From Longimicrobiales bacterium (lineage in GTDB: Bacteria > Gemmatimonadota > Gemmatimonadetes > Longimicrobiales > Gaopeijiaceae), in contig CBDFIQ010000002.1 in NCBI GenBank assembly GCA_965248195.1, positions 224,001 through 288,000 on the forward strand: a DNA stretch of 64,000 nt, written 5' to 3'. The position numbers are program-made. Every line of letters begins with the position of its first letter. The stretch's first letter is position 1. This document shows, piece after piece, positions 33,001 to 39,000 of the stretch.

Positions 33001-36000
33001 ATCACGGCACCTACCCCTTCGTCACCTCCTCGAACACGACCGCCGGTGGCGCGGCTACGGGCTCGGGGATCGGGCCCACCGCGATCGACGCGGTGATCGG
33101 CGTGGTGAAGGCCTACACTACGCGCGTCGGGAACGGGCCGCTTCCGACGGGATTCGAGCCGGAGATGGATGAAAAATTTCGGGAGTTGGGCGGAGAGTTC
33201 GGCGCGACGACCGGGCGGCCTCGGCGGTGTGGTTGGTTCGACGCCGTGCTCGCCCGTTACGCGGCCCGGGTGAATGGCCTGACGGGATTGGCCGTGACCA
33301 AGTTGGATGTTCTGGATACGGTTCCCGAGATTTCGATCGCCACTGCGTACCGAACACCGAGGGGTGAGCTGCATGAATTCCCCGCCGACACTTGGCAGCT
33401 CGGAGAGGTGGAGCCGATCTACGAGACGCTTCCGGGCTGGGAGGCACCGACTCGGGAGGCCTCCACCTTGGCGGATCTACCGGCGGCAGCCCGCAGTTAC
33501 CTGGATCGCATCGAGGAACTTACCGACACGCCCATTGAGATGGTGTCCGTAGGAACTCGCAGGAGGCAGATCATCAGGGTCTGACGTCGACGGCCTCGAC
33601 GATGCACGCCGGTGCCGGGAAAAGGGGGTGCACGATCTACCGTTGCCCCACCCATACTCTTATCTTTTTAAGCTTTGTCGCATCCATTCGCTCGGGCGTC
33701 TGTGGTGAGAGAGTGGGTGGTTTGCCAATGAGGAGGACTGGGCGCCGATGTTCGACGAACTCGGCAACAAGCTGGACAGTGTTCTGGGGAAGTTCCGGCA
33801 GCGGGGCGTCATTACGGAGCCCATGATCCGGGATGGCCTTCGTGAGGTCCGGCGGGTTCTTCTCGAGGCAGACGTCAACTATAAGGTGACGCGGCAGTTT
33901 CTCGAGCGCGTGCAGGAGCGGGCTCTCGGCGAGCAGGTCATCAAATCGGTTTCGCCGGGACAGCAGATCGTCAAGATCGTCCATGACGAGTTGGCGAGTC
34001 TGCTGGGCGAGGGACCGGCAACGCTCGAGTGGGCGTCGTCAGTGCCGACGGTGATTTTGGTCGTGGGCCTGCAGGGTTCGGGTAAGACGACCACAGTGGC
34101 GAAGTTGGCGAAGCGGTTCGCAGGTGAGGGCAGGGCGCCCTTGCTGGCCGCTTGTGACCTGTACCGCCCGGCGGCCGTCGACCAGTTGGCAACGCTCGGG
34201 GAGCAGGTCGGCGTGCCGGTTCACCGGGGCGGCTCGGGTGAAGATCCGGTCGCCGTGGCGAACGCCGCCGTGGCGATCGCACGGCGCGACGGCAGGACCG
34301 TGCTGATTGTGGATACGGCCGGTCGGCTCCAGATCGACGAGCCGATGATGGACGAGCTTCGCCGGCTCAAAGCGGATCTGGCGCCGCAGGAGATCCTGCT
34401 GGTGGCCGACGCCATGACCGGCCAAGAGGCGGTGAATATCGCGGAGGGCTTCGACCAGGCGTTGGGCCTGACCGGTGTGATCCTCACGAAGATGGACGGT
34501 GATGCCCGAGGCGGAGCGGCGCTCTCGATTCGGGGAGTGGTCGGGAAGCCGATCAAGTTCGTGGGCGTGGGCGAGACAGCAGACGATCTGGAGCTGACCG
34601 ACCCGGAGCGCATGGCGGGGCGCATCCTCAAGATGGGGGATGTGGTCGGTTTGGTGGAACGGGCAGAGCGGGCCCTGGACGCTGGAGCGCAGGTAGAGCT
34701 TCAGCAGCAGATGCTCAGGGGACGCTTTACGTTGGAAGACTTCTTGACCGCGATGCGGCAGGTCCAGAAGATGGGTCCGGTGGAGCAGTTGTTGAAGATG
34801 ATTCCGGGTGCGGCCCGGGCGATACCGGACGGGGGAATCGATCCGAAAAGGATGAAGCATGTCGAGGCGATCATCCTCTCGATGACGAAGGCTGAGCGAA
34901 TCGCGCCGGAGATCCTGGACGGATCGAGGAGAGCGCGAATCGCGAAGGGAAGTGGGCGGCCGGTTTCGGAGGTGAATCGACTGCTCAAGCAGTTCAAGGA
35001 GACGCAGAAGTTCATGAAACAGATGAAGGGCATGCTGCCCGTCTGATCACGTGGAAAACCGCCGGATGGACTGGCGACAAAGGACGAACTGGAAAGCGCA
35101 TATGTCCGTAAGAATTCGACTTCGCCGTATGGGCCGGAAAAAGCTGGCTCATTATCGCATCGTAGTGGCCGACTCCGCGGCACCGCGGGATGGTCGCTTC
35201 GTGGAGACTCTCGGGTATTACAAGCCCCTGACGAGCCCGGCGCGCCTTGTCGTGGACCTGGAGAAGGCCGATGAGTGGATCGGCAAGGGTGCCGAGCAGT
35301 CCGACACGATCCGCACGCTACTGAACAAGGCTCGCAAGGGCGGGGATAGCAAGGTCGCGGTTGGCGAGATCGATCCCGAGGAGGCGAAGGCCGCCAAGGC
35401 CGCCGCCGTGGAGGAACGCCGCAAGGCCGAGGCGAAAGCCCGCGAGGCGGCGGCCGCTGCAGCGGTTGCCCAGGAAGCGGCGACCGCAGCTGCGGCTGAG
35501 GTGGAGGCTGAAGAGGTTGCCGAGGCTGAGCCCGAAGCAGAGGCTGCCCAGGAGGAGCCCGCTGCGGAAGAGGAAGCTGAGCCCGAAGCAGAGGCTGCCC
35601 AGGAGGAGCCCGCTGCGGAAGAGGAAGCTGAGCCCGAAGCAGAGGCCGCCGAAGAGGAGCCCACAGCTGAAGAAGAAGCTGAGCCCGAAGCGGAGGCTGC
35701 CGAAGAGGAGCCCGCAGCGGAAGCAGAGGCTGAGCCCGGAGCGAAGCCTGCCGAGGAGGAGCCCGCAGCGGAAGAAGAAGCTGAGCCCGAAGCGGAGGCT
35801 GCCGAAGAGGAGCCCGCAGCTGAAGCAGAGGCTGAGCCCGAAGCGGAGGCTGCCGAAGAGGAGCCCGCCGCTGAAGCGGAAGCTGAGCCTGAAGCGGAGG
35901 CTGCCGAGGAGGAGCCCGCCGCTGAAGCAGAGGCTGAGCCTGAAGCGGAGGCTGCCGAGGAGGAGCCCGCAGCTGAAGCAGAGGCTGAGCCTGAAGCGGA

Positions 36001-39000
36001 GGCTGCCGAGGAGGAGCCCGCAGCTGAAGCAGAGGCTGAGCCCAAAGCGGAGGCTGCCAAGGAGAAGCCCGCCGCCAAAGCAGCAGCTAAGCCCAAAGCG
36101 AAGGCCGCCAAGGAGAAGCCCGCCGCCAAAGCAGCAGCTAAGCCCAAAGCGAAGGCTGCAAAAAAGAAGAAGCCCGCTGCCAAGAAAAAGGAAAAAAAGT
36201 CGAAGTAACTCCTCGCACGCACCGTCATGGGTAAGACCCAAGCGCCGAAGAATTTGGTCGTGGGGCACCTCAACAAGGCCCACGGCACCAAGGGCGAGAT
36301 CTTCATCTGGCCCCTGACTGACCACCCCGAGAGCACGTTCGCTCCCGGGGTGGATCTGTACCTGGGTGACGCGAACGGCGATCTGCCGACCGACCCACTG
36401 ACGCTGCGGGTCGAGTCGAGTCGAGCGTATCGCCGTGGGTTCCTGGTTCGTTTCGCGGGGGTCCACGACCGAAGTGGAGTGGATGGCCTTCTGGACCGGT
36501 ACGTCATGCGCGCCATGGAACAGATCGAAGAGTTGGCTGAGGGTGAGACCTTCTACCACCAACTCCTGGGCATGGAGGTCGTCACCGTCGAGGGTGAGCA
36601 GGTGGGAGAGGTCGTCGAGATCTACGAGTTGAGGCCAGCGGACCTCTTGGAGATCCGGGGTCCGGAGAAGACCTTCATGATCCCGTATATCTCGGAGATG
36701 ATCCAGTCGGTGAGCGTGGCGGACAACCGGATCGTGCTCGACCCGCCTCCGGGCCTCTTGGAGGTGTAACTTGGGCGGCCACGATCCGATCACGATCAAC
36801 ATCGTCACGATTTTTCCCGAATTCTTCGAGACGCCGTTGGCGACGAGTATCCCTGGGCGTGCGGCCGAAAAGGGGCTCGTGCGTTATCGGGTGGTGGACC
36901 TTCGAGCGTTCACGACGGATCGGCACCAGACGGTGGACGACATACCGTACGGAGGGGGGGCGGGAATGGTCCTGAAGCCTGAACCCTTCTTCGAGGCGGT
37001 CGACAGCCTGGCCACGAAAGGCCCGGTCGTGCTCCTTTCCGCGCGTGGAAAGATCTTCAGCCATCAGGATGCGGTGCGGTACGCCGTGCAGCCGGACCTC
37101 ACGCTGCTCTGCGGCCATTACAAGGATGTCGACCAACGGGTCGCCGACCACCTTGCCACGGAGGAGATCTCACTCGGCCGCTTTGTGCTGTCTGGGGGAG
37201 AGATCGGGGCACTCGCGGTCGCGGACTCGGTGGTCCGACTCCTTCCCGGAGCGATGGGCGACCATGACTCGGCGGCGACGGACTCTTTTTACGACGGTGC
37301 CTCTCTCAGTGCTCCATCCTTCACGCGCCCACCGGAGTACCGAGGACACGCGGTCCCGGAGGTCCTTCGCACCGGGGATCACCGGAAAATTGAAAAGTGG
37401 CGAGAGGCGGAAGCGAGGCGCCGGACGGCGGAGCGGGAGGGCGAGTAACCCCCTCCCGCACGTCCTCTTCACCGGTCGTCGGACGTCGATTATCTTATAG
37501 GCTACCGACGAACGGGACGTTCGCCTGAACCACAAGGACATGACATGTCTGATCTTATCCAAGAGCTCGAGAAGGCGGAGTTTAGGGACGACTCCCCCGA
37601 CTTTGCTCCCGGTGATACGGTTCGGGTGCTCTATAACGTCCGAGAGGGCACCAAGGAGCGCATTCAGGCCTTCGAGGGCGTCTGCATCGGGCGCCGGGGC
37701 GGTGGAATGGGTGAAACGTTCACGGTACGGAAGATTTCCAGCGGGATCGGCGTCGAGCGCGTGTTCCCGCTTCACGCGCCGACTGTCACGGGAGTCGAGG
37801 TCGTCCGTCGCGGGCGCGTACGACGTGCCAAGCTCTACTACATGAGAGGCCTGCGAGGCAAGGCGGCACGCATCCGGGAGAAGCGGACCACCTAGGAACA
37901 CGACCTAATACGATGAGCGCACCGGCCCAGTCGCCGGACCACGCGGAAAACGAACGGCTTCAAGACCCCCTCGAGTACGAGAGGCGGTTCTGGAGCCGAG
38001 GTCTTTTGGGGGTAGCCGGCGTCGATGAGGTCGGGCGCGGCCCCCTCGCCGGGCCGGTGGTCGCGGCCGCGGTCGTCCTACCCGAAGGCATGAGGATCGA
38101 GGGGGCTACCGACTCCAAGGCGCTCGGTCATGCGGAGCGGGAGAAACTCTCCGCATTGATCCTGGCCCATGCCCAGGCCGTTACCCTTGGGGCAGCCTCA
38201 GTTCGGGAAATCGACTGTGCCAACATCCTCGTGGCGACCGCATGGGCCGTGAACCGTGCGCTCGAAAGGTTGCCTCGCAAGCCGGATCACGTTGTCGTGG
38301 ATGGCCTTCCGATGAAGTCACTTCGGTGGATGCACGAAGCGGTGGTCGGGGGAGACGCCACAGTGCACTCGGTGGCGTGCGCTTCCATTGTGGCGAAGGT
38401 CTGCCGGGATCGGCTCATGGCCAAACTGGCGATTCGATATCCCGGGTATGGATGGGATCACAACATGGGCTACGGGACCAAGGAGCACCGGGCCGCCCTA
38501 GAGCGGCTGGGAGCCACACCGCACCACCGGCAGACATTCCTGGGTTTACAGTACGCGATGGAGCTGTAGTAGGGGGCGGCCACGAGCCCTGGCTCGCGTA
38601 CGGTGATCCAGAGCCCGTCTGACGAGCTATCGGAAACGCAGAAGGGGCGGTCCTCGCCTTGAGGCCGCCCCTTCTAGCACGTGTGGTTGAAGACGCCGTT
38701 CTTAACTAACCCCTTCCTCTACCCCGGCGACCTCTGTTACGCGATCATCATCGTCGTCATCATCGTCCTCGTCATCATCGTCGTCATCAATGTCATTATC
38801 GCCATCATCATCGTCATCATCGTCGTCATCGTCGTGACATTCACCGCCGCAGCGGGAGCCGTAATATAGCCTCCGGTCCAGTTGAATCGACGCCACGCTG
38901 ATGTCGGAACCGAGCCACAGGGAGAACTCGACGGGATTGCTGAAGTTCACCGTATGCAGATCGGAGCTGTACGGACCCCTCGCCTGAATCTTGAAACGAC

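Follow-up and report, generated by a model that had tools for sequence, protein, structure and literature searches.

Disordered, largely acidic tails built from in-frame repeats on bS16 and other ribosome-associated proteins of a Gaopeijiaceae bacterium

In the genome of a Longimicrobiales bacterium of the family Gaopeijiaceae, ribosomal protein bS16 has a core of 82 aa followed by a tail of 286 aa, and further tails sit on the termini, or in one case on a linker, of ribosome-surface proteins and of ribosome- and RNA-polymerase-associated factors. To judge from the sequences, these tails are very probably real, translated and constrained in composition. The explanation that we consider best as a whole, although we hold it with about as much doubt as belief, is that they are genuine translated, disordered polyanionic extensions, born from minisatellites and having a brush-like role that depends on bulk physics. 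The window analysed here is a stretch of 64,000 nucleotides (contig CBDFIQ010000002.1, positions 224,001 to 288,000), along which all coordinates are given; the source organism is described as a marine bacterium.

The initial annotation had described bS16 as a protein of 368 aa whose Pfam domain ends at residue 67, and both points agree with the translation of the open reading frame (35102-36208) and with our own Pfam search, in which Ribosomal_S16 (PF00886) matched residues 9-67 with an E-value of 9.1e-21 and a score of 74 bits, above the gathering cut-off of 27. The start of the protein, M-S-V-R-I-R-L, matches that of 26 orthologues in the family alignment. Concerning the genomic context, Pfam assignments for the four neighbours gave the order ffh-rpsP-rimM-trmD-rplS, which is the conserved, usual operon order for rpsP:

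33748..35046, + strand: ffh (SRP54), upstream neighbour of rpsP (Pfam SRP54, SRP_SPB, SRP54_N)
35102..36208, + strand: rpsP, ribosomal protein bS16 including its tail, 368 aa (ATG at 35102, stop at 36206-36208; open reading frame and translation)
36227..36769, + strand: rimM, downstream neighbour of rpsP (Pfam RimM, PRC_RimM)
36771..37448, + strand: trmD (Pfam tRNA_m1G_MT, E 3e-52)
37545..37895, + strand: rplS (bL19), 116 aa, of ordinary length and without a tail (Pfam Ribosomal_L19, residues 4-113)

The tail of bS16 had been called acidic. This is true of its repeat block but not of the tail throughout, as a conserved segment and a predicted helix precede that block and a Lys-rich block ends the protein:

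35102..35347, + strand: the S16 domain itself, spanning residues 1-82, with a net charge of +8 (Pfam; composition; AlphaFold2 with pLDDT 77-94 and the expected strands and helices)
35348..35548, + strand: conserved proximal extension with invariant G88 and R107, continued by a single alpha-helix predicted for residues 92-149 (alignment of 27 family proteins; AlphaFold2)
35525..36034, + strand: ten in-frame 51-bp units, AEPEAEAAEEEPAAEAE, residues 142-311 (TRF; unit table; composition; pLDDT about 40)
36035..36205, + strand: Lys-rich C-terminal block, residues 312-368, K+R 40%, net charge +18 (unit table; composition; comparison of the tips)

AlphaFold2 predicted residues 92-149 as one helix of 58 residues, with a pLDDT of 88-96 in this block up to residue 140; compared with ER/K single alpha-helices, the predicted helical segment contains 42% Ala rather than having the typical ER/K composition. 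From residue 150 on, pLDDT is about 40 and the chain is predicted to be disordered. The ten units contain 47% D+E, nearly all of it Glu, together with 38% Ala and 12% Pro, and have a net charge of -79. The Lys-rich block opens with two further units of this 51-bp repeat in which AAG/AAA replaces GAG/GAA, giving AKPKAKAAKEKPAAKAA.

TRF placed the array at 35525-36159, with a period of 51, 12.5 copies, 91% matches, 0% indels and a score of 871, reproducing the 51 bp x 12.5 reported initially. The period that is a multiple of three, the high identity of the units and the lack of indels fit a coding minisatellite. Ten acidic and two basic units are present here, versus eight acidic units in a sister species. 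Identity between units amounts to 0.89 and 0.90 inside the two genomes and to 0.83 across them, and all ten units of this genome have their nearest neighbour in this genome as well; the repeat units evolve in concert, resembling one another more closely inside one genome than across species. Of the 37 nucleotide differences from the consensus among the ten acidic units, 27 fall at codon position 3, with 25 synonymous versus 10 non-synonymous codons, while counting by column leaves only 9 of 15 alleles at position 3, a modest synonymous excess. The sister species encodes the same 17-aa unit though the DNA of the units is only 83% identical between the genomes, and this, together with the mostly synonymous differences, points to a constraint on the peptide. 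The tails originated by expansion, contraction and homogenisation, within each genome, of in-frame minisatellites in which GAR, GCN and CCN codons abound, so that tail length shifts fast and composition is kept.

A long bS16 tail of variable length had been proposed as a family trait, and the family loci bear this out: in all 30 loci read the tail is present (55-291 aa) and net negative, and the reading frame is unbroken in all 27 C-terminally complete loci, which derive from many independent assemblies. The length of bS16 ranges from 115 to 373 aa in the family, and in several genera the tails measure just 33-63 aa. In the family alignment the composition of the tail is kept, and nothing beyond composition. 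Tails of 55-176 aa on uS2 and of 20-57 aa on bL25 occur in 30/30 loci, and every family locus read has C-terminal tails on bS1 (17-265 aa) and tails on NusA (22-134 aa). Also in 30/30 loci, bS6 and bS18 form a fusion protein with an acidic linker of 46-72 aa. The acidic low-complexity tail attributed to uS2 does exist, in a protein of 415 aa, but it is of mixed charge in relatives. Only this genus has the uL10 tail (2 of 30 loci, the other 28 being without it), and long uL15 tails are rare (4/30). Tail lengths co-vary across genomes, with rho 0.75 for bS1-NusA (n=19; 0.65 without this genus), 0.65 for bS16-bS1 and 0.62 for bS16-NusA, all computed without correction for shared ancestry; when this genus is left out, four of six gene pairs have p > 0.05. 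Such co-variation between unlinked genes points to a pressure at the level of the lineage, strongest in this genus.

In this genome, tails were found on all the other proteins named by the initial annotation. Translation returned the same lengths for bS1 (865 aa), uS2, uL10 (266 aa) and uL4 (408 aa), the NusA locus encoding 559 aa; our Pfam run gave the same spans for uS2, uL10, bS1 and uL4, and a tandem-array scan the same repeats (204 bp x 2.1 in bS1, 60 bp x 3.8 in uS2, 75 bp x 3.0 at 100% in uL10 and 63 bp x 3.6 in NusA). The tails are C-terminal, after residue 82 in bS16 and likewise in uS2, uL10, uL15, bL25 and bS1, in which six S1 stretches are followed by a tail of 265 aa with a net charge of -111. 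All extensions together amount to 1,297 extra residues and a net charge of -273 per ribosome. Concerning uL4, its 200-aa Lys/Ala-rich tail is indeed Lys-rich, but it proved to be a variable linker ending in a conserved module of about 45 aa, found in 8 of 29 loci with 14 invariant positions and predicted to form three helices (block pLDDT about 87-91). No Pfam family matched this module, and a Foldseek search of its fold gave no convincing match (best E-value 2.1). The linker is Lys-rich here and acidic in one relative; the Lys-rich end of bS16 and linker of uL4 run counter to an all-acidic picture.

Windows of 50 aa with at least 30% D+E and at most 12% bulky residues were found in 30 of 3,988 proteins of our own crude gene call, versus 32 of 4,508 reported before, and it holds that such proteins are few and that ribosomal proteins are prominent among them. 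The 30 include bS1, bS16, uS2, the bS6-bS18 fusion, uL15, bL25, IF2, NusA and MtaB; uL10 is absent solely because the gene caller picked the opposite strand. Ribosomal proteins are enriched among the acidic-tail proteins with an odds ratio of 27 (p 5.5e-8) on the earlier totals and of 20.8 (p 1.9e-6) on ours, both tests assuming a set of 53 ribosomal protein genes rather than a count in this genome.

Ala/Glu-rich C-terminal low-complexity regions (LCRs) on S16, S2, L25, S6, L10 and IF2 have been published before (Ntountoumi et al. 2019, NAR 47:9998, PMC6821194), and the tails are an extreme case of this pattern already described in bacteria. According to the text of that survey, S2, S16 and L25 have more than 100 LCR-bearing orthologues each, and S6 and L10 at least 20; IF-2 is the bacterial protein with most LCRs, 157 of 187 S16 LCRs exceed 70% Ala+Glu, and the LCRs are C-terminal with an inferred location on the ribosome surface. 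The tails described here are alike in the proteins concerned, the Ala+Glu composition (residues 142-311 of bS16 also exceed 70%), the C-terminal position and the presumed place on the ribosome surface. Presence in moderately distant relatives was seen for bS16, uS2 and bL25 (30/30) and not for uL10 (2/30) or long uL15 tails (4/30). The difference lies in scale, the 82-aa core of bS16 bearing 286 further residues and each ribosome gaining about 1,300, and repeat units as long as 51-204 bp are explicitly beyond the survey's scope. Concerted evolution, an end block inverted from Glu to Lys, length co-variation and the family-versus-genus distribution were not found in the passages of its text consulted.

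The uL10 tail, three identical 25-aa repeats, forms an acidic, presumably disordered extension after the uL10 stalk-binding helix. Acidic C-terminal tails are likewise carried by the archaeal and eukaryotic stalk proteins uL10(P0), P1 and P2; unlike these, the tail here is genus-specific, and no P-protein-type hydrophobic factor-binding tip was seen in it. In E. coli, bS6 has an oligo-glutamate C-terminus extended by RimK. The acidic stretch here likewise follows the S6 domain on its C-terminal side, next to bS18, but it is genome-encoded, 46-72 aa long and a covalent linker of the bS6-bS18 fusion in every family locus. TonB carries a Glu-Pro / Lys-Pro spacer, and bS16 residues 142-368 similarly show an acidic Pro-containing repeat block and then a Lys/Pro block; protein, compartment and repeat unit are unrelated, and this is a resemblance only. 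'Protein TonB' is among the LCR top ten in the survey text (PMC6821194). Finally, D/E repeats in DNA- and RNA-binding proteins are described, in the text of Wang et al. 2023 (PMC10250230), as autoinhibiting and as speeding target search. These proteins are eukaryotic, and the likeness is one of architecture alone, namely a polyanionic disordered region on nucleic-acid-binding domains (six S1 in bS1, S1/KH in NusA).

As for function, we tentatively propose that the tails may act as a brush or as competitors, by bulk physics rather than by specific sequence. The positions of bS16 and the other tailed proteins are known from the solved E. coli and Thermus ribosomes. By analogy with these, and with the location stated in the survey text (PMC6821194), we infer that the tails lie on the solvent surface, where they would add some 1,300 residues and about -270 in net charge to each ribosome and cover the solvent side of both subunits with a hydrated, charged brush. 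It would keep ribosomes dispersed and soluble and repel non-specific binding of RNA or polycations, and the tails of the RNA-binding bS1 and NusA may serve as a nucleic-acid-mimicking competitor. A more speculative extension, which we regard as unlikely, is that bS1, uS2, bS16, bS6-bS18, uL10, uL15, bL25, NusA and IF2 were jointly re-engineered into a polyelectrolyte-coated ribosome, their lengths co-tuned by selection and setting a colloidal property. Candidate properties would be spacing, nucleoid exclusion or a reversible condensation in which the Lys-rich blocks of bS16 and uL4 take part, and the change from Glu to Lys in the final bS16 repeats would then act as a switch between colloidal regimes.

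It is also possible, if somewhat doubtful, that the tails do nothing and are a neutral or nearly neutral by-product of slippage-prone GAR/GCN/CCN repeats growing at a few permissive exposed termini on proteins that are constrained elsewhere. The very variable length of bS16, tails nearly dispensable in some relatives and a uL10 tail that is mostly absent fit weak or no selection on length, and the lack of conservation beyond composition and recent near-identical units, as in uL10, agree with this. Other coding repeats are many, such as (GIPDE)x30, (EK)n in an FdhE-like protein and (VD)n in MtaB; in 106 of the genome's 144 tandem arrays scoring at least 100 the period is divisible by three, so that a general slippage propensity could contribute. 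However, neutrality does not sit well with the acidic composition kept in 30/30 bS16 loci and the synonymous bias of unit differences, with the co-variation of unlinked genes, with the roughly 20- to 27-fold enrichment of ribosomal proteins, or with the high cost of lengthening the cell's most abundant proteins by about 1,300 residues in total, an argument from cost that the survey text (PMC6821194) makes as well.

It is quite improbable that the low-complexity parts are tethers presenting a conserved terminal element, such as an E-K-S-E tip on bS16 or the three-helix module of uL4, which would capture a partner near the ribosome as in SSB, where a linker is combined with a terminal tip. Of the bS16 proteins, 8 of the 27 from family loci and 30 of the 120 long database homologues terminate exactly in EKSE, which occurs nowhere else in 3,778 tail residues, and the uL4 module is conserved while its linker varies between Lys-rich and acidic. 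Nevertheless the tip differs in 19 of the 27 loci, being EKKSK embedded in the basic block in this genome; on the uS2, bS1, NusA, uL10 and bL25 tails of the family loci no terminal motif was seen, and the uL4 module lacks a convincing counterpart in the Pfam and Foldseek searches above.

A proteome-wide acid shift of the halophile, salt-in type is very improbable. The proteome is mildly acidic (D+E 12.7% versus K+R 10.3%, from crude gene calls), and the sole species in the NCBI taxonomy of the genus named by the initial annotation is 'maritima'. Salt-in halophile proteomes have a median pI near 4-4.5; here the median is 5.43 with 24% of the proteins above pI 8, a bimodal profile that is ordinary for bacteria. 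The survey text (PMC6821194) describes halobacterial LCRs as enriched in acidic residues, but in our case acidity is concentrated in the tails and not across domains, the S16 core being net positive.

Contigs from four public runs were searched for one spanning the array and none does, joints skipping 243-379 bases occur, and the repeat number of bS16 is therefore unchecked against reads. That the tails are mis-assembled, out of frame or never part of the mature protein is hardly credible even so, and even with an N-run inside the bS16 tail of one relative showing that repeats do break assemblies, given tails in 30/30 loci from independent assemblies including single-contig genomes, a sister protein of 373 aa versus 368 here, a frame kept through to a shared terminal motif and, as a weak hint only, RNA-library contigs that match stretches of the tail with about 96% identity.

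For annotation, these tails are a warning that such repeats break short-read assemblies and give long spurious open reading frames on the opposite strand. For the question of why bacteria bear the cost of long low-complexity tails on their most abundant proteins, open since the survey of 2019, the family is an unusually strong natural series, with bS16 from 115 to 373 aa, a uL10 tail on or off between genera, a fixed bS6-bS18 fusion and co-varying lengths.

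The bS16 gene of this genome lies among ffh, rimM, trmD and rplS, as recognised by Pfam, and the arrangement ffh, rpsP, rimM, trmD, rplS is the usual operon. Pfam places Ribosomal_S16 on residues 9-67 of the product (E 9.1e-21). A start further upstream, GTG at 35051 (385 aa), was considered and rejected, since 26 of 26 aligned family orthologues begin M-[SAP]-V-[RK]-I-R-L, which matches the ATG at 35102. The gene and the zones of its product are as follows.

rpsP and the zones of bS16
Window 35102-36208, + strand: rpsP (bS16), a 368-codon frame opened by ATG at 35102
Residues 1-82: S16 fold, net charge +8, pLDDT 77-94
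Residues 83-149: segment conserved in the family, G88 and R107 being invariant
Residues 142-311: acidic block, ten in-frame units AEPEAEAAEEEPAAEAE
Residues 312-368: Lys-rich block, net charge +18

A single helix is predicted for residues 92-149, with a block pLDDT of 88-96 as far as residue 140. Residues 142-311 (D+E 47%, Ala 38%, Pro 12%, net charge -79) are predicted to be disordered, with pLDDT about 40; Lys and Arg are almost absent from this 170-aa stretch, so that trypsin would not cut it. In TRF, 35525-36159 is an array of period 51 bp and 12.5 copies, free of indels and with 91% matches, and the first two units of the Lys-rich block are this same repeat with GAG/GAA changed to AAG/AAA, yielding AKPKAKAAKEKPAAKAA. 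From the S16 fold outwards the tail passes from a stalk to a polyanion and ends in a short polycation, and therefore it is not uniformly acidic: the acidic tail described in the initial annotation holds for residues 142-311 but not for the Lys-rich end. Concerning the number of copies, four public runs were compared over window 34700-36700; they hold only short metagenome contigs from several related strains, none of which spans the array, so that they are uninformative either way, and at the joints in these contigs 243-379 bases are skipped, with other letters intervening at some of them. Opposite the repeat, at window 35218-36808 (- strand), stop-free ORFs of 432 and 496 aa are found; these are by-products of the repeat which a naive gene caller could choose, and our crude gene call likewise picked an opposite-strand ORF at uL10. 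Elsewhere in the window, an intergenic tandem repeat (25-bp x 3.4, 95% matches) occupies 32087-32172, directly upstream of an adenylosuccinate-synthetase-like ORF at 32292-33584.

We compared the ten acidic units with their consensus and found that codon position 3 holds 27 of the 37 nucleotide differences, with 25 codons changed synonymously and 10 non-synonymously. Counting variable columns singly, which reduces the double counting of inherited changes, position 3 accounts for 9 of 15 alleles. The same 17-aa peptide is encoded by eight units in the sister species. Identity between units is 0.89 and 0.90 within the two genomes and 0.83 between them, and every unit of the genome under study has its nearest relative within that genome; over the 390 nt of flanking sequence the two species are 87% identical. 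These sequence comparisons show concerted evolution of the bS16 repeat with the peptide kept constant, an argument for a translated tail whose composition is of importance.

The initial annotation had also listed bS1, uS2, uL10, NusA and uL4 at five further places, and translation of all five matched exactly. These proteins, together with IF2, uL15, bL25 (CTC type) and MtaB, were confirmed by Pfam, which also finds Ribosomal_S6 and Ribosomal_S18 in one ORF. Over the whole genome TRF gave 144 arrays of score at least 100, of which 106 have a period divisible by 3; bS16 ranks 10th, bS1 12th, uL10 19th, uS2 24th and NusA 25th. In our crude gene call, 30 of 3,988 proteins contain an acidic window by a criterion close to the one used initially. 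The enrichment of ribosomal proteins in such a list is about 20- to 27-fold, on the assumption of 53 ribosomal-protein genes. The list also includes FtsH, Lon, DnaK, DivIVA, PspA and ScpB, and therefore such tails occur outside the translation machinery too. The PspA/IM30 family protein (290 aa, window 10140-11012, + strand), one of the 30, has an acidic, low-complexity C-terminal tail. Ribosomal-protein extensions total 1,297 residues with a net charge of -273. In the S10-spc-alpha region, uL29 (91 aa, C2:879618-879893, C2 being a contig label for places outside the window) has a (TDET)n end encoded by five perfect copies of a 12-bp unit, uS17 (114 aa, C2:879907-880251) has an N-terminal acidic extension (AEV)n and RpoA ends in an acidic stretch; the remaining proteins are of ordinary length by E. 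coli standards. Among other genes, the one at C2:2717082-2717545 (+ strand) opens with 30 perfect 15-bp units encoding GIPDE (TRF, 100% matches). Those at C2:144228-147389 and C2:2167195-2169186 encode paralogous proteins with a common N-terminal domain of ~200 aa, without Pfam match, and acidic regions of great length after it; in one of the two a 405-bp unit is repeated (x 3.4, 97%) and a response-regulator receiver domain forms the C-terminus.

A bS16 match was obtained in 59 of 61 family genomes. For each protein in the family survey, ORFs were obtained by tblastn-guided extraction at no more than 30 loci.

Tails in loci of the family Gaopeijiaceae
bS16: tail of 55-291 aa, net negative in all; 30/30 loci
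uS2: tail of 55-176 aa, charge mixed (K+R 6-21%); 30/30 loci
bS1: acidic N-terminal extension; C-terminal tail of 17-265 aa
NusA: tail of 22-134 aa
bL25: tail of 20-57 aa; 30/30 loci
bS6-bS18: fusion with a poly-Asp/Glu linker of 46-72 aa; 30/30 loci (L122-L151)
uL10: tail of 94 aa in this genome and of 90 aa in the same-genus G009 only; the remaining 28 loci have 1-5 aa
uL15: tail of at least 50 aa; 4/30 loci

The maximum tail length, or a tie for it, is found in the genus under study for bS16, bS1, uS2, NusA and uL10. In a second sample, with bS16 loci drawn across the phylum, the protein has 115-218 aa in other Gaopeijiaceae genera (15 readable loci), 149 aa in the same order (one locus), 85-107 aa in another family of the same class, f4 (six loci), and 185 and 242 aa in a further family, f3 (two loci, the 185 aa coming from the unpublished genome G154). 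Since bS16 is shorter in other genera and families, the long tail is not phylum-wide; on the loci sampled it is a trait of part of Gaopeijiaceae and its order. A database search confined to bS16 homologues of 202-644 aa found 201 proteins at E <= 1e-5; among the 120 of these matches that were listed, tail net charge is <= -10 in 107 and basic in one. Two apparent fusions were discarded: a bS16-RimM protein of 477 aa (locus L219, genome G170) has an N-run within the repeat, and a uL4 read-through into uL23 (L254, genome G015) has an X-run and was excluded. The N-runs lie exactly within the bS16 and uL4 low-complexity regions and make rimM and uL23 look fused to them by read-through; repeats of this type break short-read assemblies.

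The bS6-bS18 protein is in this genome one fused ORF (C2:2171421-2172161, - strand), and judging from the surveyed loci the fusion is fixed in Gaopeijiaceae. It also seems to exist elsewhere in the phylum, in some further families, because in a phylum sample S6 and S18 matches share one open-frame length in several of their genomes; in f4 they are two separate adjacent genes.

We also compared tail lengths across genomes. The correlation between bS1 and NusA is rho 0.75 (n 19), or 0.65 without the genus under study, while bS16 and bS1 give 0.65, uS2 and NusA 0.58, and bS16 and uS2 only 0.16. Tail lengths of unlinked genes thus co-vary, but the statistics ignore kinship and most pairs are non-significant without this genus; the co-variation is therefore suggestive only.

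The uL4 extension (C2:875357-876583, + strand) had been described as a Lys/Ala-rich tail. This is true of its linker, but the extension closes with a conserved module of ~45 aa with 14 invariant positions (L-P-x-V...F-L-x-x-F-D...R-D-x-R-K-T-A...Y-x-x-R), present in 8 of 29 loci (L242-L247, L261 and L262). A three-helix bundle is predicted for the module, at a block pLDDT of about 87-91; in one relative the linker ahead of it is acidic. Its first member had no Pfam family at E <= 10, three other members gave stray matches near E 0.1, and Foldseek returned nothing at E <= 0.001. A weak match to engineered I-CreI C-terminal helices (PDB profile search, E 2.8e-4) was treated as chance.

Tails of this kind have been published. 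In the available text of a survey of low-complexity regions (LCRs; Ntountoumi et al. 2019, PMC6821194), LCR-bearing orthologues from different genera number more than 100 for each of S2, S16 and L25 and at least 20 for S6 and L10, Ala+Glu exceeds 70% in 157 of 187 S16 LCRs, ribosomal-protein LCRs are mostly C-terminal and located on the ribosome surface, and IF-2 heads the bacterial list. The tail-bearing proteins found here are largely those reported there, and our case is therefore an extreme instance of an already known pattern; the initial annotation was right as a description, but over-rated its novelty. In open-access PMC and bioRxiv we found no description of Gemmatimonadota ribosomal-protein extensions, no function described for acidic bS16 tails and no paper on a bS6-bS18 fusion. 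What is added here is the zone structure of bS16, the Glu-to-Lys inverted units, the concerted evolution, the split between family and genus, and the co-variation of tail lengths.

As to what the tails do, their frames are real, they are predicted to be disordered, and their composition is conserved while their length turns over fast. Because length is so labile, a purely neutral origin is a serious rival; the constant peptide of the bS16 units speaks for a composition that matters. That the tails are tethers presenting a terminal tip or module finds limited support: 8 of 27 family loci and, among the matches listed, 30 of 120 database homologues have EKSE as the exact bS16 C-terminus, with no occurrence of it elsewhere in 3,778 tail residues, and uL4 ends in its conserved module. 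A salt-in halophile explanation is unlikely, since with a median pI of 5.43 the acidity of the proteome overall is mild. In solved ribosomes the tailed proteins lie on the solvent side, a location also given in the LCR survey (PMC6821194). We propose that the tails would form a charged, hydrated brush, altering the contacts of the ribosome with other ribosomes, the nucleoid, polycations and non-specific RNA. By analogy with D/E repeats, as far as the available text describes them (PMC10250230), the bS1 and NusA tails may also be nucleic-acid-like competitors for their own RNA-binding domains.
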